64,000 nt of DNA, taken from the IMG/VR virus record IMGVR_UViG_2724679237_000005, positions 44,631-108,630 of that record; one strand, 5' to 3'. Origin of the DNA: a virus (lineage: Duplodnaviria; Heunggongvirae; Uroviricota; Caudoviricetes). The notes below the pieces were generated by a model that saw nothing but the letters and a program-made list of their open reading frames with translations, made no database searches and was not told the origin of the DNA. The position numbers and the translations under genes are program-made. This document shows positions 10,655 through 46,400 of the stretch, piece after piece (within the stretch, counting starts at the first letter, position 1; each line of letters begins with the position of its first letter).

Positions 10655-13018
10655 TCAAATATCGAAGCTCGTTATGTCGGCATTTATTGCCATTGCTTCG
10701 GCATAAGTGCGACGCTCACCATCAGCACAAAGTAGGCGTGCTGCTTTATGGATTTTTCTCGTAGAACCGTCATCCAGTGACACTGTCACCCAGCCTTCCT
10801 CCGCTCGCTTAATGAAGTCGCCGCCAATGGATTTCATTTTCTCCATATCTTTTTTCCCGATCGCTTTCCTGACCGAGTCTGCTTCCGCCATTGAGAACCC
10901 CGCCAAGATTCGCGTAGCAGCCATGATCTGTTCCTGATAAATCAGAACACCGTTTGTGTCGCGAGAGATGTCGTCCAGCATAGGGTGTAAGGAATGTGGA
11001 GCCATGAAGCCTTTGGCCACGGAGACATAGTCGTCCAACATGCCGGATTGAATCGGGCCTGGTCGGAAGAGTGCGGTCGTGGCGACAACGGTCTTGAAGC
11101 TCATTGGCTCGATGCCACCGCCCAGATCTTTAAGCAACTTACGCATGGGGCCGGACTCCAGCTGGAATACGCCCTGCGTGTACCCTGCAGCGAACCCATC
11201 CAGAACCTTGCGATCGTCCAGTGGGATAGCGTCGAGATTGATATCTTCACCTGTGTTCTCTTTTATGTAGCGTTTTGCACTATCGAGCAAATCGAGAGTT
11301 GCCAGGCCAAGCACGTCCAGCTTAATTAGGCCCATAGCCTCGCAGTAACGCTTGTCAAATGCGATACAACGCGCGTCACCACGTCGTTCAACCGGTGTAC
11401 GTTCTGTCAGAGGAACACCTGCTACGATCATCCCTGCCGCATGTCTACCAAAGCCACGCATAAGGCTTTGTAACTTGCAGGCTGCATTGAATGCATCAGG
11501 ATATTTTGTTGCGTATTTGTCGAGACTTGCCAGTTGTTCGCGCAGTTCTTCCAATGGAAGGCTATCATCCTCAGCGTTCTTCAGTTCTTTTGATACCGCC
11601 ATATCTGCGGACTCCACACCATAAATACGAGCGGTGTCACGTAGTGCAGAGGCTGCGCCCAGGTAGGTGAAGTTCGGAATGCCTGCAACGTAATCTTCGC
11701 CGTAGCGTTCATTCAGATACTCGATCACCTCATGGCGACGTGCCTGGCTGAAGTCCAAATCCGCATCTGGCAAGTCGAGACGCTCAGGGTTGATGAAACG
11801 CTCAAACAGAAGACCGTGACGGATTGGGTCGACGTTGGTTATGCCTATGCACCACGCCACCAGAGAACCGGCAGAGGAACCACGACCAGGCCCAACGGGA
11901 ATGCCAGTTTCACGACTATGATTCATCAGATCGCGCACCATCAGGAAGTAACCACAGAATCCCAGGCGAGTCAGCGTGTCCATTTCGTACTTTAGCCGCT
12001 CAACATAAACCCTGTTCTCAGAAGCAGGTGGTGTGTATCCAAACTCTTTTGTGGTAAGACGTTTACGCAGCCCTGCAACAGCCAGTTTCATCAGCGTTGC
12101 AGGTTCGTCGTCTGCCATCTTGGGCAGTGCTGGTGGCAATTCATGCCAGCGCCATGTGCAGGAATCGATAATGGTATCCTGCGTTGTTGAGGCCATTGCA
12201 GCTGTTACAGGCACATCCATGCGAACGGAGAAGGCTTTAAGCGCCTCAAGGAGATGGCGGCGACCATTGACGGCGTTATCTCGCTGGTGGGGGATACGCA
12301 GACGATGCGGCTGGTCGATTTTGATGTTGTTCGTAACCATGTGCGCAATGTCTTTAATGTCTGCATCGTCGATCGATTCGTAATAAGCGGGATAGAACGC
12401 CACTGGCTCTATTTTCAATGCGCTGGCGACTTTCATCGCCCGGACGTTAATCTGGTCGTAGAATGGGGTAGGGTGCGGATAAACCACACTATAGAAGTTG
12501 TCTTTTCCACCCGCTGTAATCAGTGTGCTTATGATTTTTGCAAAATCGTTGCGTTGGAACACGCTACCGATGTCGGAAGTAAGCAGGATGATGTTGCCTT
12601 TGGCATATGTAGAAACCAACTGTTCGAGCGAGAGACGCGGTACAAAGTAGAACTGTTCTCGTGTGTTGGCCGCCGTCATTAGTTCGCAGATGTCGCGATA
12701 TCCTTGCTCATTTTTAATTAGAGCGGTAAACGAGTAGTTACGTCCCCGCTCTAATGATTCCATACATCTCATAGATTCTTTAGCAAGTTTAGCCCGGTGC
12801 TCGTATGTGGGATCATCAACAATGTTTAGTTTCACACCACAAATAACCGCCATGTCGTCACCAGCGGCACGTTGTAGTGGAATAACGCTCGCAATATTCA
12901 TGCTATCTGCTGAAATTACAGCGGTGTAGCCAGCTTCTCTGGCAATCTTCACCGCGTTTTCTGCTTTTAGAGCCGACTCCCCAAGTGAGAAGTCAGTTCG
13001 AACCATCAGTGCCTTCAT
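10655..13018 (-). CDS. dnaE: DNA polymerase III alpha (DnaE), N-terminal fragment (PHP and polymerase core)
   Basis: Palm motif GYFLMVRDLMNHSRETGIPVGPGRGSSAGSLVAWCIGITNVDP and LFERFINPERLDLPDADLDF; ends just before the fingers FNKSHS motif, which is found in the downstream fragment. Confidence 0.85.
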   Translation of the reverse strand: MKALMVRTDFSLGESALKAENAVKIAREAGYTAVISADSMNIASVIPLQRAAGDDMAVICGVKLNIVDDPTYEHRAKLAKESMRCMESLERGRNYSFTALIKNEQGYRDICELMTAANTREQFYFVPRLSLEQLVSTYAKGNIILLTSDIGSVFQRNDFAKIISTLITAGGKDNFYSVVYPHPTPFYDQINVRAMKVASALKIEPVAFYPAYYESIDDADIKDIAHMVTNNIKIDQPHRLRIPHQRDNAVNGRRHLLEALKAFSVRMDVPVTAAMASTTQDTIIDSCTWRWHELPPALPKMADDEPATLMKLAVAGLRKRLTTKEFGYTPPASENRVYVERLKYEMDTLTRLGFCGYFLMVRDLMNHSRETGIPVGPGRGSSAGSLVAWCIGITNVDPIRHGLLFERFINPERLDLPDADLDFSQARRHEVIEYLNERYGEDYVAGIPNFTYLGAASALRDTARIYGVESADMAVSKELKNAEDDSLPLEELREQLASLDKYATKYPDAFNAACKLQSLMRGFGRHAAGMIVAGVPLTERTPVERRGDARCIAFDKRYCEAMGLIKLDVLGLATLDLLDSAKRYIKENTGEDINLDAIPLDDRKVLDGFAAGYTQGVFQLESGPMRKLLKDLGGGIEPMSFKTVVATTALFRPGPIQSGMLDDYVSVAKGFMAPHSLHPMLDDISRDTNGVLIYQEQIMAATRILAGFSMAEADSVRKAIGKKDMEKMKSIGGDFIKRAEEGWVTVSLDDGSTRKIHKAARLLCADGERRTYAEAMAINADITSFDI

Positions 13019-19141: not shown

Positions 19142-19315
19142 TGTTACCTCATAGAATTGATATGCAACTTTACTTACAAAGAAGATAGGTATGTGCATAC
19201 TTATCATTGCAGTCTGCATTATAAAGCTATTAAAGCCTCGATCAATCTATTAATTAAGGCATTGTTTGGTTAACATTACCCTAATATTTTATAGTTAGTA
19301 GAGTGAAATACATAC

Positions 19316-20578
19316 ATGCCTTTTTTAATTTTCATTATTATACTACTGCTCACCGTGATTTTTTGGGATTGGGTTGTTTTAAATGGTCAAATTGTTGGAA
19401 CATTGGCTACAGCATTTGCTTTTATAGCAACAGCATGGAATGCCTACGAAGCGAGAAAAAGTGCAAAAGCAGCTTTTTCAGCCCTTCAATTAACAACAGA
19501 ATCATTGTTCGAAATGCGAAAGAGTGCATTTAAACAATGGTTTGATTCCTTATTAAATCAACATGATGAGCTATGTCTTCTTGCAAAACAAATTATCGAT
19601 AAACGCAAAGTTAATTTAAACAGCGATGAGTTACATAGACTATATTACCCATTGGTAAAACAGCATGAGGTAATACAGTATGTGAAGCATATTATTAATA
19701 TTTTTGAGTATGTGGATAGTTCATTTTATATTGATGGGGAATGTCTAAAGGAAAAAAGAGCGTATGTGTCACAATTAATTTTCAAAATCCCACCTCAGAT
19801 GAAGTTGATCATTGCTATCTTTGGATTAAAAATCGATTATTGTGAACATATTAATTCGGGAAAACTGTGTTGTTTATTGAATAAATATGATTTTTTCAAT
19901 GATGAAATATTTTTTGATGATGCTTATTCAGATATGCCTTATCTGGATGCATTCATAAACCTTAGATTCAACAAAATATTCAAATCTCGAATGATAAATT
20001 ATTTTGATAATATCATTAAAAGTTATTATGTTCCATCGGACGTTAAAAGGGACTGGATGTTTCGAAACCCAAAGCTCGTGCCGTCGGTTCTTATGAATTA
20101 TAAAACTCCTTGTTCTCCTATAATTAATGATTACTTTGAGAAGTTGCCTTTACATGTAAGAAACTACTTTGAGGAACTACTTAAAACCGCGAATGATAGA
20201 GTTACTCATTTTGACGTTTACATCCCACGCCTTATTGGTTGTTCAATCGTGCAACATTACGAAGATGTGCCTTCCGAAAAAAACAGGTTAAATGACAGGA
20301 ATGATGTAATAGCTATGGCTGAAGATTACATCGAGAAAAGAAAATATAATCAACTGGATTACATACTTGAAGATATATACTTCAAGAGTGACGAAGATAT
20401 AATCCCTGGCCACCATTTGATTGTGGCATTTGATGACTATGAATTTAAATTATCACTCATTAAGATAAATGAGAATAAAGATAGCGATAATCTTTTAAAT
20501 CGAATTTATACTGAATCCAGTAGCATGGTTAAAGAATATAAGCGCGAAATATTAAAACTGGGCGACTATGTAAAGTAA
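19316..20578 (+). CDS. AT-rich accessory gene: membrane-anchored 420-aa protein of unknown function
   Basis: Plus-strand among minus-strand genes; markedly AT-rich codon usage; two N-terminal hydrophobic helices (FLIFIIILLLTVIFWDWVVL, IVGTLATAFAFIATAW); own terminator; no recognisable catalytic motif. Confidence 0.6.
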   Translation: MPFLIFIIILLLTVIFWDWVVLNGQIVGTLATAFAFIATAWNAYEARKSAKAAFSALQLTTESLFEMRKSAFKQWFDSLLNQHDELCLLAKQIIDKRKVNLNSDELHRLYYPLVKQHEVIQYVKHIINIFEYVDSSFYIDGECLKEKRAYVSQLIFKIPPQMKLIIAIFGLKIDYCEHINSGKLCCLLNKYDFFNDEIFFDDAYSDMPYLDAFINLRFNKIFKSRMINYFDNIIKSYYVPSDVKRDWMFRNPKLVPSVLMNYKTPCSPIINDYFEKLPLHVRNYFEELLKTANDRVTHFDVYIPRLIGCSIVQHYEDVPSEKNRLNDRNDVIAMAEDYIEKRKYNQLDYILEDIYFKSDEDIIPGHHLIVAFDDYEFKLSLIKINENKDSDNLLNRIYTESSSMVKEYKREILKLGDYVK

Positions 20579-20595
20579 ATTGCACTGTTCAACAA

Positions 20596-20624
20596 AAAAG
20601 GGGCCGAAGCCCCTTTGAATTTTG
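20596..20624 (+). terminator. rho-independent terminator of the AT-rich gene
   Basis: AAAAGGGGC-CGAA-GCCCCTTT stem-loop followed by TTTGAATTTT. Confidence 0.6.
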
Positions 20625-20690
20625 CGCTGAAAAAAGTGTTGCTAGGATGTTAGCAAGCTATGGTTAAGAACGTCTGCCGTAATTATCTAT

Positions 20691-20768
20691 CACAGCGTTG
20701 AGCGGTCTGGTTTATGTTAGCGGAGTCTTAATCGAGTTGATTAAAAGGCCAAACCGCTCAACGCTGTG
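20691..20768. other. long hairpin (20-bp arms, one mismatch) adjacent to the 3' end of tRNA-Ser
   Basis: CACAGCGTTGAGCGGTCTGG at 20691-20710 pairs with CCAAACCGCTCAACGCTGTG at 20749-20768; inner hairpin TTAATC/GATTAA in the loop. Confidence 0.5.
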
Positions 20769-20770
20769 TC

Positions 20771-20857
20771 TGGCGGAGAGTAATGGAATCGAACCATCAT
20801 CGTTTGCACAATGGGACGGTTTTCAAGACCGCTTGAGCACCATGCTCCCTACTCTCC
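20771..20857 (-). tRNA. tRNA-Ser (anticodon TGA)
   Basis: Hand-folded: acceptor GGAGAGT/ACTCTCC, anticodon arm GCGGT-CTTGAAA-ACCGT, long variable arm, T-loop GGTTCGATTCC, 3' GCCA encoded. Confidence 0.75.
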
Positions 20858-21177
20858 AGCTATTGTGATGGTCGGTGCTGAACTCCGACACAGGGTTGTA
20901 GCAAGCCCCGCAAAGCGCGCACTACTGTAGTTGCGGCACATCAGCCTGTGCATTCATCACAATGGTAAGATCACTACCTTTCGACCAGTCATTGTGCACA
21001 TGAACGACGATTAACCGTAATGATATTATCGTTGTGTTGTGAAGCCAGATGCTTATCTTCTGGTTGCTTCAAAGAGCTGCACTTCCTCACAACGGTAAGA
21101 GCACTGGTCTGACTCTATCGATTTACGGCCTTGTGGGTCAGTATCGCCGATTCGCCCAATGCTCTTACCTGTTGTGT

Positions 21178-21253
21178 TGGTGCCGGTTAACGGACTTGAA
21201 CCGCTGGCCATTCGCTTACAAAACGACTGCTCTACCAACTGAGCTAAACCGGC
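21178..21253 (-). tRNA. tRNA-Thr (anticodon TGT)
   Basis: Hand-folded: acceptor GCCGGTT/AACCGGC, D-arm GCTC-AGTTGGTA-GAGC, anticodon loop TTTGTAA, T-arm AGCGG-TTCAAGT-CCGTT, CCA encoded; one mismatch at top of anticodon stem. Confidence 0.7.
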
Positions 21254-21257
21254 AATT

Positions 21258-21344
21258 TGGTGGGGAGTGATGGAGTCGAACCACCCGAGTCGCCATGACA
21301 GTAGATTTACAGTCTACACCGCTACCTCTACGGACTAACTCCCC
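21258..21344 (-). tRNA. tRNA-Tyr (anticodon GTA)
   Basis: Hand-folded: acceptor GGGGAGT/ACTCCCC, anticodon arm GTAGA-CTGTAAA-TCTAC, long variable arm, T-loop GGTTCGACTCC, CCA encoded. Confidence 0.8.
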
Positions 21345-21349
21345 TAAAT

Positions 21350-21424
21350 TGGCGATGGTGGGTGGATTCGAACCACCGACCAGTTGGTTAACAGCCAACT
21401 GCTCTACCGCTGAGCTACACCATC
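21350..21424 (-). tRNA. tRNA-Asn (anticodon GTT)
   Basis: Hand-folded: acceptor GATGGTG/CACCATC, D-arm GCTC-AGCGGTA-GAGC, anticodon arm GTTGG-CTGTTAA-CCAAC, T-arm GGTGG-TTCGAAT-CCACC, CCA encoded. Confidence 0.8.
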
Positions 21425-21609
21425 AATTCAGCACTGCCAGTATTTATTACTCAACAGTGCCAATCGCGACGGTTTAGTTTCTGCCAGGAAACGCACCGCT
21501 ACTTGCACTTTTCGTTAGTGCCAGACGCTTTCGACTTCGCTCAATAGTAGAAGGCAAAATCTTTAAGTAGATGATGTTTCTGAGGACAGCACCTACTTTG
21601 TAATTTATA

Positions 21610-21632
21610 CAATGTGATGTATGGAATCATTT
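21610..21632. repeat. copy B of 23-bp repeat CAATGNGATGTATGGAATCATTT
   Basis: Shares 14 bp (GTATGGAATCATTT) with the right arm of the 18784-18816 palindrome and 22 of 23 bp with copy C. Confidence 0.6.
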
Positions 21633-21639
21633 GTTGTGA

Positions 21640-22160
21640 AAACAGGCACCAATGGCAACAGTGGTTAAACCTACACAACAATCCCGTCTTCACAACGTTG
21701 AGGCCACTACTCCGATTGAATGTTTGCCCAACATGTTACATATCAACGCTCGCCGGTATCTCTGTGAATAGAACCTTAGAATTGATAAAAATGTAATGGC
21801 CTCAACGTTGTGTGCTGGCTAACCATACCAGCCGGGCTACGTCGCCGCTTTTTAACCCAGTATAAACGACATAATTGAACAAAATGACGTAACAGGATGG
21901 GCGGTCAGTGGCTAAGAATCCGGGAGTCATATGGAGTTGAAAATATACCAACCGCCCATTCTGTTACTTCATCGGAGGGAACATGAATGTTCCCTCCTGC
22001 GTTCTGCAATCACACTCGCTCAGTGTGTCCCATTTCGGTAACGAGGCTGGAAACTGACCTCGCTGGTGTTTGGCTTATTAGGCTACTGCCAGATAGACTT
22101 CTTCGTTTGCACTTGTATTTAAGTTCAAACAGTCGCGTCTCAACGAAAACAAAGTCATCT
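21640..22160. other. ORF-poor, highly structured ~0.5-kb region; candidate noncoding RNA or cis-acting element
   Basis: No ORF with a credible start; inverted repeats 21691-21705/21798-21812 and 21897-21905/21951-21959; perfect hairpin GGAGGGAACA-TGAA-TGTTCCCTCC at 21975-21998; ATAAGTA-type motif at 22172-22193. Confidence 0.4.
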
Positions 22161-22202
22161 TATACATAAAAGATAAGTAAGTAAACACTTATCGCTGTGT
22201 TT

Positions 22203-22493
22203 TTATTCGGTTGTGACTTTTTTGATCAAGGCCACTCTACGACTAGGTGTTCTTGTGATGGTGGCAGTGAATCGTTTCGCTTGGATAGTAATGGTTTCGT
22301 TCTCCTTAAGTTGCCCGTAGCGAGTTTCAACCAGGGTGCCAAGACGCCACAGACCATCATCGATACGTTTATGACTAGCAAATTTAATCAGCAACAGTTT
22401 TACGACTAACTGACCTACGTAAAAGGCGAATGCGACTCCGGCCGCTAAGAAATAGGTGGCCAACCACCATTCCCAAGAAGTTAACTTGCTCAT
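22203..22493 (-). CDS. small membrane protein (96 aa)
   Basis: N-terminal TM helix WWLATYFLAAGVAFAFYVGQLVV; start overlaps stop of upstream small ORF (ATGA). Confidence 0.45.
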   Translation of the reverse strand: MSKLTSWEWWLATYFLAAGVAFAFYVGQLVVKLLLIKFASHKRIDDGLWRLGTLVETRYGQLKENETITIQAKRFTATITRTPSRRVALIKKVTTE

Positions 22494-22642
22494 TTTTTCA
22501 CCTTTGTTTCATGAACTACCCGATACACGCGCTTTCCGATGCACAGTGTTTTGGTTTTAAGTTCCTGCTTAATCAAATCACGACAGATGCCGAAGCCGAT
22601 AAGGAAGCCACCCATAAAAGCCAATGAGATGTATGGAATCAT
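22490..22642 (-). CDS. small membrane protein (50 aa) starting inside repeat copy C
   Basis: ATG at complement 22640-22642 within the repeat (MIPYISLAFMGGFLIGFGI...); stop overlaps next start; below ORF-track cutoff. Confidence 0.3.
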   Translation of the reverse strand: MIPYISLAFMGGFLIGFGICRDLIKQELKTKTLCIGKRVYRVVHETKVKK

Positions 22643-22647
22643 TTCAA
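22625..22647. repeat. copy C of 23-bp repeat CAATGNGATGTATGGAATCATTT
   Basis: Read directly at 22622-22644 region; provides the start codon of the 50-aa ORF on the minus strand. Confidence 0.6.
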
Positions 22648-22854
22648 CGCTCCTGACTCTACTAGTTGCTGTAGCAATACTTTCCCTTTATCAGTTAACT
22701 GGTAGTTGGCCGAACACTTCGTTTCAGAAACGTTTGCAACCAACCCTAACCGCTCTAACTTAGCCCGCGTTTTAGGCTTCCAGTACTCAGGGAACTCTGA
22801 CCACTTACTGATTTCATGAAGTGTTTCCTTCTCCCGTTTACTTAATACGATCAT
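22639..22854 (-). CDS. hypothetical small protein (71 aa)
   Basis: ORF; stop overlaps start of the next gene (ATGA). Confidence 0.45.
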   Translation of the reverse strand: MIVLSKREKETLHEISKWSEFPEYWKPKTRAKLERLGLVANVSETKCSANYQLTDKGKVLLQQLVESGALK

Positions 22855-44600: not shown

Positions 44601-46400
44601 GATGCGAACGCGCATAGGTTCGAGATCTGGTTCTGTAATTGTCCAGACACCGTTCAAAACAGGCGTTTCCGCTGACGACAGGGCTTTTGAAAACGTAACC
44701 TTTGTTATGTTTTCGCCAGTTTCAAGAACATCGCGTTCAACGATTTTGCCTTCCTGATTCAATATCCGAATAAAGCTGCCGCTTTTAGCTAACGACACAG
44801 GCGCATCGAGAGTGATGCTGTTTTTGGTAAACTCCACAATTCGACCGGAGTTACGTTTACCTGCACGATATTTGTTCTGAATCAGAACGGTTTCACCAGG
44901 CATCAGAAATGAGGCGTCTAAGCCGGCAGTAAATGTAATTACATCCGACTCCATTCTGGCGGTATACAAAAGCCACAAACCAACTCGGTGAGCCTGGCCT
45001 CGGCTTGTACATCCAAATGCTACGACTTCTGTTTTACGCTCACCATAACGGCGCATTGCGTCCTGATCTTCAACGTATTCGATGTTTTGCTTATAACCGT
45101 CCTCCTTGTTGTTGTAGGTTACGAGCGCAACGGATGGGCGATCTTTACGCGCAGAACCTTTATAGGTAAACAGTCCATCTTTGACGTTGGAGTTGGTAAA
45201 CATCATTACCGGATCTGATGGGCTATCCTGCATGATGTTAACCATGCCACCAGCCCAAAACACCATGCCGCGGAATGCACCGGCAATATCCTGAATTAAT
45301 CGGTATGCGTCTTGTCGACTGGTGATCTGCGTATTGATTGCAAAGCGTTTCTCTTTACCCCCAAAGCCATCATCGACCTCTTCGTCACAATATCGACCAA
45401 TCTGGTAGAGCTGGCCGAGGTCAATCATGGATTCCGACACAAATTGCCCAAGACCATACCGAGTATTGGTAAGCAAATCGTAGAGAATCCACGCAGGGTT
45501 TGAAGAAGACAACAGCTTAAAAGTACCGTCCCATACGCCGACATAAGTATTGGTGTATTCGTTGTAGTTTGACGGTACTCGGATTTTGATACCGCGCACC
45601 AAATACGAACGGGAAGGCATTGTGCTACCAAACTGCTCTGAATTGACCTTCAAGCCAACAAGAGCAGAGTTAGGGTAGTTCATTGGCGTGTCGACAATCT
45701 CACCTATGGAATCAACCCATGTGTCGTTGTAGAGGTACTGGCTACTGTTATCATCTGTAAGACGAATCACCCTAACCTTGTATGCACGACCAGGCTTAGG
45801 TAGTTTCAGCTCATAGCTACGGTAATACACGCCTGTTTTCTTTGCCGTTAGCGTGATATCAACGCTTTTTTCACCTTCAGCGACCACATCTACAAATGTT
45901 GAGTCGCCATTTGCTATCTGGAACTTGTACTCAACAGTCGTACCGTTCGTGTCACCAGTTTTTTTATCTATGCTTCGCAAAGAAGGAAACTTCATGATGA
46001 CACGAACCCGATCAGCTTCATCGTTATCGATTGAAACCGTTACATAATGTGTTTTTTTTAACTGGATATTGACGGATTTAGGCGTTTCAACGAAATCAAA
46101 GCCAGACATTGGAGTCTGGTCTTGTGAACCGTCGCGAAAATCCCATGTGATTCCGCTGAAGTTGGAGGAACCGTCTTCATTTACAATCGGCAGATCGTCG
46201 ATAAAAATAGATCTTGCGCCATTTACTAAGCCGCCAATTACCCCTTCCCCAAGAAGATCGAGGATAGCGGCCATTGCACGAGAATTTACGGTATCGTCGG
46301 CTTCAACCGGTGTACGGCTGGAGCTTTTGCTGCTTTTTTTACCACCCGCACCGGCAATAAACAGCGGTAGCTTTTTCTTCTTGAACTGTTCCATGTTCAA
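41667..46400 (-). CDS. J: central tail fibre / tip attachment protein J-like
   Basis: Strong similarity to lambda J core (ALVGLKVNSEQFGS, AFGCTSRGQAHRVGLWLL, KYVAGIALGIDT...SQFLV); contains a run of 33-aa coiled-coil repeats. Confidence 0.8.
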   Translation of the reverse strand: MNMEQFKKKKLPLFIAGAGGKKSSKSSSRTPVEADDTVNSRAMAAILDLLGEGVIGGLVNGARSIFIDDLPIVNEDGSSNFSGITWDFRDGSQDQTPMSGFDFVETPKSVNIQLKKTHYVTVSIDNDEADRVRVIMKFPSLRSIDKKTGDTNGTTVEYKFQIANGDSTFVDVVAEGEKSVDITLTAKKTGVYYRSYELKLPKPGRAYKVRVIRLTDDNSSQYLYNDTWVDSIGEIVDTPMNYPNSALVGLKVNSEQFGSTMPSRSYLVRGIKIRVPSNYNEYTNTYVGVWDGTFKLLSSSNPAWILYDLLTNTRYGLGQFVSESMIDLGQLYQIGRYCDEEVDDGFGGKEKRFAINTQITSRQDAYRLIQDIAGAFRGMVFWAGGMVNIMQDSPSDPVMMFTNSNVKDGLFTYKGSARKDRPSVALVTYNNKEDGYKQNIEYVEDQDAMRRYGERKTEVVAFGCTSRGQAHRVGLWLLYTARMESDVITFTAGLDASFLMPGETVLIQNKYRAGKRNSGRIVEFTKNSITLDAPVSLAKSGSFIRILNQEGKIVERDVLETGENITKVTFSKALSSAETPVLNGVWTITEPDLEPMRVRIVNIAQGETPGSFDITAVENNPSKYEAIDNGATLIPQNTTVLDPTYSKPSNLQITEGTYLSSPGNLSVKLTATWEGKSPEYWISWRRSDENNVSNWQSARVTEEQYEIVNVAENGRYDFQLYAVSFNGKKTEIISTVYQVLGTMTPPDAPTSLTAVGDYRNVILNWVNPDSVDLDHINVYASQTNNLDTAKLIAESASTTFTHAGLGDSETWYYWVRASNKRGMLSPPNSNLGTEATTRDVLSFLAGKITSSELGQALLEDINSKASQEAVDELNEHINQSVESLEGSVNDVKEDIAELDKQFSDNLAGFEIKFNERSDALENAQTELKGEVSATIDKVNEAFEKIDATDAAIVEIENTVSEHDKALANTVEAIKAARDEAAALIAKESEARVEGDAANAKQLEVLQSTVEESSAAVEEMKKTVAEVDRASAELTTNIEALAKTNIDLALRQDEDQHKQMVNNAKIATTQKTFADDMSAMATKVEEIRVEIGEDIKASILEESTARADGDEALAKRVTQLQSKFEGDISAAISTEQEARTSADEALTTQITQLESKVSNDIVAAIKEEQEARATEDSALASQITQLQAKVDDDISAAIRSEQEARASGDSALAKQINQLQSKVDGDISAAITQEQEARASADQALSREINSLRAQTGTDIAAAVAVETKARTDADSALSTQISSLTAKANDLEASLARETTARADGDTALTKEVSSLKAQTAKDISAAVAVETQARTDADSALSSQITKLTSQYKEDIKAAVATETKTRTEQDAALATQITNLESQTAANISAAVTTETTARTQADNALSGRIDTLKAEVDGNTATIQQQATAIADTNKKVSTAWTLKMETSTSGGQKYVAGIALGIDTTGLSQFLVQADRFGLVNSVNGKITTPFVIENSIAYMNGAYIKDGTITNAKVGDLQSTNFVSGRSGWRFGKNGTLEINGNSGGNGRLVINGQRIDVYDDNNVLRVRIGLL

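Follow-up and report, generated by a model that had tools for sequence, protein, structure and literature searches.

The 64,000-nucleotide (nt) stretch analysed here, referred to throughout as the window, covers positions 44,631 to 108,630 of the Caudoviricetes record IMGVR_UViG_2724679237_000005 and belongs to a P1-related phage-plasmid: over 20560-21500 it aligns at 95-97% with Escherichia phage CMS-2020a and Cyrano and at 82-85% with P1, P7 and D6. Within it we concentrate on the 320-nt spacer (20858-21177) that separates tRNA-Thr from tRNA-Ser on the minus strand, where the original prediction, made from the letters alone, had noticed a repeat family and proposed decayed tRNA genes, processing signals or a small RNA. 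On the tRNA strand, 316 of the 320 nt resolve into four units that form two tandem modules, each consisting of a type A hairpin followed by a type B unit, and we are confident that the spacer consists of members of one such A-B cassette family. The units and the tRNA genes around them are given below, where z expresses folding relative to shuffled sequence, and R1 and R2 are covariance models of type B units and type A arms, respectively.

21424-21350, minus: tRNA-Asn (ARAGORN)
21344-21258, minus: tRNA-Tyr (ARAGORN)
21253-21178, minus: tRNA-Thr (UGU), upstream spacer boundary (ARAGORN; Rfam tRNA 66.8 bits)
21176-21088, minus: A1, type A hairpin; 20 pairs, 48-nt insert, z = -5.9, R2 39.5 bits
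21093-21036, minus: Bs, short type B unit; R1 24.4 bits, E 8e-5
21036-20958, minus: A2, type A hairpin; R2 22 bits, E about 5e-4, z = -0.9
20963-20862, minus: B, full type B unit; R1 64.6 bits, E 6e-16; the minimum free energy (MFE) structure reproduces the scaffold
20857-20771, minus: tRNA-Ser (UGA), downstream spacer boundary (ARAGORN; Rfam tRNA-Sec/tRNA clan 44.8 bits)
20768-20691, minus: A3, type A variant; 20 pairs, z = -9.9 (hairpin scan)

Anatomy of the A and B units

The repeats that first drew attention to the spacer are real. The sequence TCACAAYGGTAAGAKCAC occurs exactly twice in the 64 kb (20957-20974 and 21087-21104), against 0.13 copies expected in shuffled sequence, and at least two copies appeared in 0 of 100 shuffles; the ends of the repeats as first reported were a few bases too long. 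As proposed, the second direct copy has an inverted partner at 21156-21176 with which it pairs, leaving a 1-nt bulge; the arms 21094-21107 and 21156-21169 are 93% complementary and are extended by GTTGTG/CACAAC. Since these repeats are the arms of minus-strand hairpins, their reading changes once they are taken on the tRNA strand: the second direct copy and the inverted copy are the two arms of A1, and the first direct copy is the 3' arm of A2. The hairpin arms had thus been seen, but the two multi-branch units, which account for about half of the spacer, had been overlooked.

Type A units are hairpins of about 20 bp whose base, CACAAC/GUUGUG, is conserved, as is a U-G pair near the top; they often have a bulged A and carry a variable insert of 30-90 nt. 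A single nucleotide separates A1 from the CCA of tRNA-Thr, and the arms of A1, 5' CACAAC-A-GGUAAGAGCAUUGG and CCAGUGCUCUUACC-GUUGUG 3', contain one bulged A and one U-G pair. The stem of A2 carries three mismatches and CMS-2020a and similar relatives have a better one; given these mismatches, we regard A2 as a decayed copy. A3, originally reported as a hairpin abutting tRNA-Ser, does lie 2 nt from the 3' end of that gene, and its 20-nt arms show 95% complementarity when read on the plus strand and pair completely, with one G-U, on the minus strand. These arms (CACAGCGUUGAGCGGUUUGG and CCAGACCGCUCAACGCUGUG) define a variant with CACAGCGUUGAG arms, and the insert between them comprises a small covarying hairpin followed by the single-stranded segment AAGACUCCGC, which is conserved between the E. 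coli and Klebsiella copies. Every E. coli or Klebsiella relative with tRNA-Ser also carries A3, Cyrano included.

The type B scaffold is closed by a stem of 9 bp (GUUGUGGUG/CACCACAAC) and contains a 5' hairpin, then an insert that varies and takes the position of an anticodon arm, and finally a 3' hairpin that abuts the 3' strand. In B, the closing stem AUUGUGAUG/CAUCACAAU encloses the 5' hairpin GCACA-GGCUGA-UGUGC, a branched 46-nt insert and the 3' hairpin GUCGG-AGUUCAGCA-CCGAC, whose direct contact with the 3' strand of the closing stem gives a tRNA-like topology; the unit terminates 4 nt before tRNA-Ser and has neither an encoded CCA nor a canonical T-loop. Bs, closed by GUUGUGAGG/CUUCACAAC, lacks the 5' hairpin and retains the 3' hairpin CCAGA-AGAUAAGCA-UCUGG (5 bp, 9-nt loop). 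Calling B units tRNA-like is fair because one relative has a canonical T-arm at the position of the 3' hairpin: the B unit of IMG/VR locus L080 carries a true T-arm there, GCCGG-UUCGAUU-CCGGC. Adjacent units overlap by a shared GUUGUG (A1/Bs at 21093-21088, A2/B at 20963-20958), and because the motif that ends each A is also the start of the next B, A-B is best described as a composite module. In a terminator scan, none of the spacer units had a terminator of its own.

Conservation, covariation and spread of the family

Both unit types are recognised independently by covariance models. R1 was trained on 17 type B units from D6, plasmid pRHB13 (which carry different B inserts) and IMG/VR contigs; the training set left out the window and its near-identical relatives and included two units resembling STnc100, a small RNA compared below. 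Over the whole window, R1 returned only 20963-20862, its best match, and 21093-21036, plus one weak match in the leader upstream of the tRNAs. R2, built from the arms of 30 viral-contig units, found only A1 and A2 in the 64 kb, with no other match at E<1, and scored A1 higher on the minus strand (39.5 bits, E 5e-9) than on the plus strand (33.3 bits). A1 and A2 accordingly combine at least 18 pairs, a CACAAC...GUUGUG base and an R2 match; A3 and the type A units of the leader are not R2 matches and represent variants recovered by the hairpin scan only. With its filters off, R2 yielded fragments only, leaving no room for long inserts, and this mode was not used.

The scaffolds covary as expected of RNA helices. 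Across 35 genome-scan matches to the B scaffold, 98.8% of cells are paired, and double-sided changes occur in 11 of 19 pairs, compared with 2.0 in shuffles (0 of 500 reached the observed value) and 1-2 in slid controls; this alignment was fitted to the model, and a MAFFT alignment of the training units points in the same direction, more weakly. The 22 distinct versions of the A arms show double changes at 18 of 20 pairs, with a conserved base, a conserved U-G at pair 17 (13 of 22) and a covarying mid-stem, and are 96% paired, a percentage that is partly circular since the units were chosen as hairpins. On the tRNA strand, G-U pairs outnumber A-C oppositions by 37:11 in A and 18:3 in B. In addition, B is co-oriented with the neighbouring tRNA at all five genome loci where a tRNA was found and at all 16 P1-like loci.

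The repeats, whose possible absence from relatives had been raised at the outset, recur there in variable number. The spacer between tRNA-Thr and tRNA-Ser measures 224 nt in CMS-2020a SCU-107 and 213 nt in pRHB13, with one A-B module each; 320 nt in the window, with two; and 446-490 nt in P7, D6 and CMS-2020a SCU-175, with two modules and linkers, while P1 has three modules. Klebsiella plasmids hold one A plus Bs between tRNA-Asn and tRNA-Ser, and Bs is also found in P1, D6 and P7. In Cyrano (OV696614; 1768-1775 of the examined stretch) the spacer is reduced to 8 nt, ACACAAUU, without any unit; the array has apparently collapsed onto a single CACAAY motif, which makes this genome a natural deletion control.

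The inserts vary independently of the scaffold. Comparison of the window with P1/D6 and P7/Ro157c2 shows at least three unrelated inserts in the unit immediately after tRNA-Thr, in a scaffold that is kept. Conversely, the A1 insert of the window reappears in E. coli AR_0017, where it occupies the interval separating the holin gene of a lambdoid prophage from a tR'-like terminator; compensatory changes are seen there both in the stem (GGUAAG/CUUACC to GGAAAG/CUUUCC) and in the insert helix (CUGAC/GUCAG to CUGCC/GGUAG). Collectively, the units exist, their scaffolds are conserved and covary, and their inserts are exchangeable.

In some relatives, A inserts mimic parts of tRNAs, motifs that the window inserts lack. 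The sequence GGGCUCAUAACCC, which we take to be the E. coli initiator-tRNA anticodon arm, is present in A inserts of several viral contigs, P1-type units have GGGGUCAUAUCCC, and others contain the canonical T-arms GGGUUCGAAUCCC and GGGUUCAACUCCC. Such inserts are found in the second A unit of stretches L001, L003 and L007 and in the IMG/VR loci L019, L040, L051, L082, L111, L022, L033, L042 and L084.

Beyond the immediate relatives, a gapped A-then-B pattern matched at least 120 IMG/VR stretches. Among the pattern matches listed, 63 of 124 are true hairpins of 18-25 pairs, representing 39 distinct sequences, and the remaining roughly 50% are chance matches with 6-14 pairs, so that pair count separates the two cleanly. 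A tRNA of any kind is present in 21 of the 120 IMG/VR loci listed, and most units do not lie near tRNAs. A 28-nt segment of the B 5' scaffold was recovered at 30 places in species-representative genomes, spanning about 20 genera of Enterobacterales together with Aeromonas, Marinobacterium and a few odd metagenome-assembled genomes; R1 matches at full length at all 30, across very different insert lengths. An A hairpin lies directly upstream of B at 8 of the 30 by automated search. The automated finder overlooks hairpins with two bulges, for which hand folding was used, and an upstream A hairpin was seen at all nine further loci folded in this way (in the MFE structure at eight of them).

The segment 20680-21180 is matched by 997 PLSDB plasmids and by 756 of 5426 complete E. 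coli genomes (about 14%), and the family occurs widely among both P1-like phage-plasmids and lambdoid prophages. At gathering thresholds, a single tRNA was the only Rfam match in 142 kb of carrier contigs, and among the matches listed PGAP annotates only tRNAs beneath the matched segment. No description of the A-B family turned up when the literature was searched by gene name, sequence and tag peptide.

The surrounding RNA operon and its leader

On the minus strand, about 1.6 kb (22202-20597) are without a credible open reading frame (ORF), and both 22210-21425 (z = -8.1) and 21180-20680 (z = -5.1) fold far better than shuffled sequence. The order along this strand is leader units, tRNA-Asn, tRNA-Tyr, tRNA-Thr, A1, Bs, A2, B, tRNA-Ser, A3 and a terminator, and the whole stretch looks like a single RNA-gene operon. 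Its remaining features are as follows.

22110-22075, minus: SsrA-tag-like 10-codon template GCAAACGAAGAAGUCUAUCUGGCAGUAGCCUAAUAA, ANEEVYLAVA plus two stops; flanks conserved (about 22160-21990)
21973-21883, minus: leader type A hairpin, 25 pairs (hairpin scan)
21812-21691, minus: leader type A hairpin, 20 pairs (hairpin scan)
21696-21633, minus: weak leader B-like unit (R1, 10.1 bits only)
20616-20597, minus: strong intrinsic terminator at the end of the non-coding operon, AAAGGGGCUUCGGCCCCUUU then a U run (terminator scan)

The leader units sit upstream of tRNA-Asn. Within the 64-kb window, this operon alone contains 50-160-nt hairpins that reach at least 20 pairs with no more than three G-U; the hairpin finder is permissive to G-U, and a cut-off of at least 17-18 pairs was needed. 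The insert of the 21973-21883 hairpin has a by-eye likeness to DicF, which we dropped as the Rfam DicF model gives it no support. Between A3 and the main terminator lies a weaker terminator-like hairpin, UUGCUA...UAGCAA followed by UUUUUU (20630-20659, minus), which could set a 3'-end-derived RNA including A3. A promoter scan of 20400-22700 returned no sigma-70-like site, and none internal to the operon, and the P1 C1 operator ATTGCTCTAATAAATTT was not found in the window with up to three mismatches allowed. The homologous stretch of P1 lies in the C1-controlled ban operon, where the order is dmt, Pban, a 'dicF-like region', tRNA-Asn, tRNA-Thr, upl/plp, tciABC, tRNA-Ile and ban, with upl and plp annotated on the strand opposite to the tRNAs.

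The SsrA-tag-like template may be a more surprising feature of the locus than the A-B units. Its peptide pattern is kept in 27 retrieved loci, as seven peptides encoded by 12 nucleotide versions that include synonymous variants; elsewhere it reads ANDDLMMVAA (P1), ANDDLMMAAA (P7) or ANDNQYLAVA (Klebsiella), and further versions are ANDEQFLAVA, ANEEMYLAVA and ANDDLMLAAA. The template always comprises 10 codons plus a stop, lies upstream of tRNAs or A-B units and has an A-rich stretch before GCA; the P1 copy has an in-frame stop 8 codons upstream and lacks a start codon. The template has no start codon, and no tRNA-like domain could be recognised, with Rfam tmRNA_permuted giving 20-25 bits only and ARAGORN negative at default settings, and the peptides went unmentioned in the literature searched.

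Past the end of the operon, a 420-aa ORF without an assigned function (19316-20578, plus strand) converges on it. The corresponding position downstream of the RNA array is occupied by an AbiH-family abortive-infection gene in the Klebsiella plasmid KpWEA3, where the orientation differs, and by tciABC in P1. The slot beyond the array may be a variable accessory or defence slot.

Candidate functions and comparison with known RNAs

We consider it reasonably probable that the units are processed small RNAs with functional inserts. They would be co-transcribed with the tRNAs from an upstream early promoter. RNase III would then cut the A stems of about 20 bp, A1 (20 pairs, one bulge) and A3 (20 continuous pairs) both offering the roughly 20 bp of near-continuous double-stranded RNA expected of a predicted substrate, and RNase P and RNase E would act at the tRNAs and possibly at the B scaffold. 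The insert-bearing RNAs may accumulate, with the inserts as their active part serving as base-pairing seeds or mimics, in the manner of STnc100/PasD and DicF; the AAGACUCCGC segment of A3 is plausible as an anti-Shine-Dalgarno-type seed. Because A and B share GUUGUG, they compete for six pairs, and, speculatively, cleavage of A could license full closure of B. Of the possibilities raised in the original prediction, processing signals or a small RNA has fared well: the repeats are the arms of a conserved hairpin scaffold, and the rest of the spacer is a tRNA-shaped scaffold related to STnc100.

Several observations weigh against this explanation. The proposed processing by RNases III, P and E draws on the shape of the units and on the DicF precedent, and the absence of a CCA and of a canonical T-loop in B makes its recognition by RNase P uncertain. 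Bs and B are only modestly better folded than shuffles (z = -1.8 and -1.9), A2 folds at -0.9 and is degenerate, and the pairing percentage of the A arms carries the circularity mentioned above. The two strands fold almost equally well in the window (minus versus plus: -37.5 versus -36.7 kcal/mol for A1, -36.8 versus -37.5 kcal/mol for B), so that strand assignment rests on G-U counts, orientation and context. The Rfam STnc100 model gave no match at E<=10 in 20400-21700, leaving the window units below Rfam thresholds. Finally, CRISPR interference against plp, upl and trnT in P1 caused no plaque defect (PMC10695390), which implies that any function is accessory.

A different explanation, unlikely in our judgement, is that the units serve only as cis-acting punctuation for processing and stability, providing RNase III or RNase P entry sites and exonuclease barriers that would keep tRNAs and operon segments apart and shield them, in the way of the T7 early mRNA RNase III sites or the stems of rRNA operons, with inserts that have no function in trans. 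The placement of A1 1 nt after the tRNA-Thr CCA and of A3 2 nt after tRNA-Ser would suit such a role, as would stems of a size appropriate to RNase III, the occurrence of units in long phage operon leaders and the tolerated decay of A2. However, the same two tRNAs are separated in Cyrano by just 8 nt without a unit, and can evidently do without such units, and most viral-contig units are not near tRNAs. Mere punctuation also leaves unexplained why the inserts have conserved helices of their own, compensatory change between P1-like and lambdoid copies and conserved single-stranded motifs, and STnc100 and PasD have been described as small RNAs with distinct target sets (bioRxiv 10.64898/2026.05.13.724894).

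Quite improbable, in our estimation, is that the units act at the DNA level without any RNA function, either as selfish palindromic repeats resembling miniature inverted-repeat transposable elements (MITE-like) or as recombination hotspots, the CACAAC/GTTGTG ends driving the gain, loss and shuffling of cassettes. Copy number and order do vary among close relatives, the Cyrano ACACAAUU resembles a collapse onto CACAAY, inserts reassort between scaffolds, and both strands fold about equally in the window. Such elements would hardly account for the excess of G-U over A-C on the transcribed strand, for the asymmetry of B and its co-orientation with tRNAs, or for the retention of the 28-nt B segment across about 20 genera; moreover, we saw no target-site duplications and, in the annotated contexts seen, no transposase or integrase, and the core is unlike attC.

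We regard it as very improbable that the units are decayed tRNA genes, as originally suggested. Their position within a tRNA operon, the tRNA-like topology of B, the T-arm of L080 and the hairpins resembling T-arms or the initiator anticodon arm in relatives' A inserts all lend the idea some appeal, but ARAGORN called no tRNA in 20858-21177 at default settings, with introns or at 80% thresholds, where intron models added none, and the Rfam tRNA model (RF00005) had no spacer match at E<=10. Calls made by ARAGORN at 60-70% thresholds fell on both strands, at noise level, and a relaxed search for transfer-messenger RNA produced nothing credible in the spacer. Type A units have no cloverleaf, and conservation across genera accompanied by covariation is not expected of decaying pseudogenes.

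Least credible of all, to the point of being nearly negligible, is that the spacer is a remnant of the plus-strand protein genes plp and upl, which are annotated across the homologous region of P1 and leave tblastn fragments in the window: at module borders the matches change frame, whether in the window, P7, E. albertii or Ro157c2, the 125-aa plp ORF is rich in Cys and Ser, starts with TTG and overlaps tRNA-Thr by 30 nt, neither gene is annotated in P7 or D6, the longest plus-strand ORF of the window spacer has 73 aa and extends into the tRNAs, and in P1 itself upl/plp run antisense to the A-B units in an unconserved frame and are therefore probably spurious.

Alongside the favoured interpretation as processed small RNAs with functional inserts, we put forward a more speculative proposal that we ourselves hold to be rather doubtful: the A and B scaffolds may form a natural, exchangeable display system, a phage counterpart of the engineered 'tRNA scaffold', with which temperate enterobacterial phages would express interchangeable small RNAs out of operon leaders and tRNA operons, the whole constituting an operon that mimics the translation apparatus and either decoys tRNA-targeting defences or manipulates ribosome rescue. 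Under this proposal the inserts would include anti-Shine-Dalgarno-like seeds and, in relatives, sequences imitating either the initiator-tRNA anticodon arm (GGGCUCAUAACCC) or T-arms, and the SsrA-tag-like template often found upstream on the same strand would belong to the same operon.

The carriers are common, with P1-like phage-plasmids in about 14% of complete E. coli genomes and lambdoid prophages commoner still, yet this two-scaffold RNA cassette family with dozens of inserts is largely unannotated, and in P1 it is shown as two wrong-strand proteins. The scaffolds allow DicF, STnc100/PasD and the P1 'dicF-like region' to be placed in one shared structural setting, and through them new phage small RNAs can be found without reliance on their variable functional parts. 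Recognising the scaffold also suggests maturation rules and corrects the probable misannotation of plp/upl.

Among known RNAs, STnc100 (RF02076) is the closest to type B. Both share a core consisting of a 5' (G)UGGUGAAU with a hairpin and a 3' CCGG...CCGG-CACCA(C) that closes on the 5' end, an architecture present in the window in B (R1 64.6) and in Bs (24.4, without the 5' hairpin), and both are found in phage operon leaders. With the Rfam STnc100 model, the relatives' B units all stay below its gathering score of 47: pRHB13 gives 44.1 bits, E. albertii 38.5, K-12 Qin 34.4 and P1 33.4. In contrast to STnc100, the window B units have other inserts, lack a terminator of their own and lie within a tRNA operon, arranged in tandem with A hairpins. 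An STnc100 copy lies 75 nt downstream of stx2, and its RNA has been detected by reverse transcription PCR (PMC12370729); STnc100 and PasD are both described as prophage-encoded small RNAs, and target data from RNA interaction by ligation and sequencing (RIL-seq) are cited for PasD (bioRxiv 10.64898/2026.05.13.724894). Type B can be classed with STnc100/PasD, as a divergent member or a variant of that kind. No Rfam family matched the A units, and across spacer and leader, scanning Rfam at E<=10 returned only tRNAs and noise.

The DicF locus (dicBF operon) of the K-12 Qin prophage resembles the window in being a long non-coding phage-operon stretch in which an A hairpin, a B-like unit, dicF and a B unit (R1 36.9 bits) precede dicB (about 19173-19582 of stretch L168). 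A second Qin B-like unit is located between cspB and essQ, in the late-operon leader (11062-11172 of the same stretch). The window differs in that its units are interleaved with tRNAs and that DicF was not detected: the Rfam DicF model (RF00039), which scores the K-12 dicF control at 76.7 bits, gave no match at E<=10 in 20400-22300 and none in P1 at E<=5. The P1 stretch that overlaps and adjoins the 'dicF-like region' matches the Qin B-like unit and not dicF (77.6% over 98 nt, E 2e-14); together with upl/plp, it is covered by 1376-1945 and 2525-2626 of stretch L001 (NC_005856). According to Faubladier 1990, as cited in PMC6212723, maturation of DicF needs RNase III and RNase E, and DicF is the only experimental precedent for the processing of such an array.

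Other candidates were set aside. YrlA/Y RNA (RF02553) reached only 15-26 bits against a gathering score of 69, in matches overlapping genuine tRNAs and not the A or B units. The likeness to integron attC sites fails because their core consensus is unmet, the ends RCACAAC/GTTGTGR departing from RYYYAAC/GTTRRRY by one or two positions in every copy; no integrase was present in the annotated flanks of P1, Cyrano, D6, Ro157c2, P7 and the lambdoid prophage, the window itself not having been searched.

Broader parallels are provided by the T4 species 1 and 2 RNAs (rnaC/rnaD) and by the RNase P-processed C4 RNA of P1/P7, small structured RNAs that are co-transcribed with tRNAs or processed like them. 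As in the processing model proposed here for A and B, they have paired 5' and 3' ends and a host tRNA-processing enzyme takes part in their maturation; to our knowledge, a scaffold with exchangeable inserts and a tandem A-B layout are not among their features. We found no sequence or model similarity between these RNAs and the window units, and the Rfam C4 family had no match in the window. The RNase III sites of T7 early mRNA and lambda sib are likewise conserved hairpins of about 20 bp between functional segments of a polycistronic transcript, from which the A units differ in their large, diverse and structured inserts and in being paired with a tRNA-shaped unit. Relative to Rfam 15 and the literature searched, the new elements are the A scaffold, the A-B composite, the exchangeable inserts and the placement between tRNAs.

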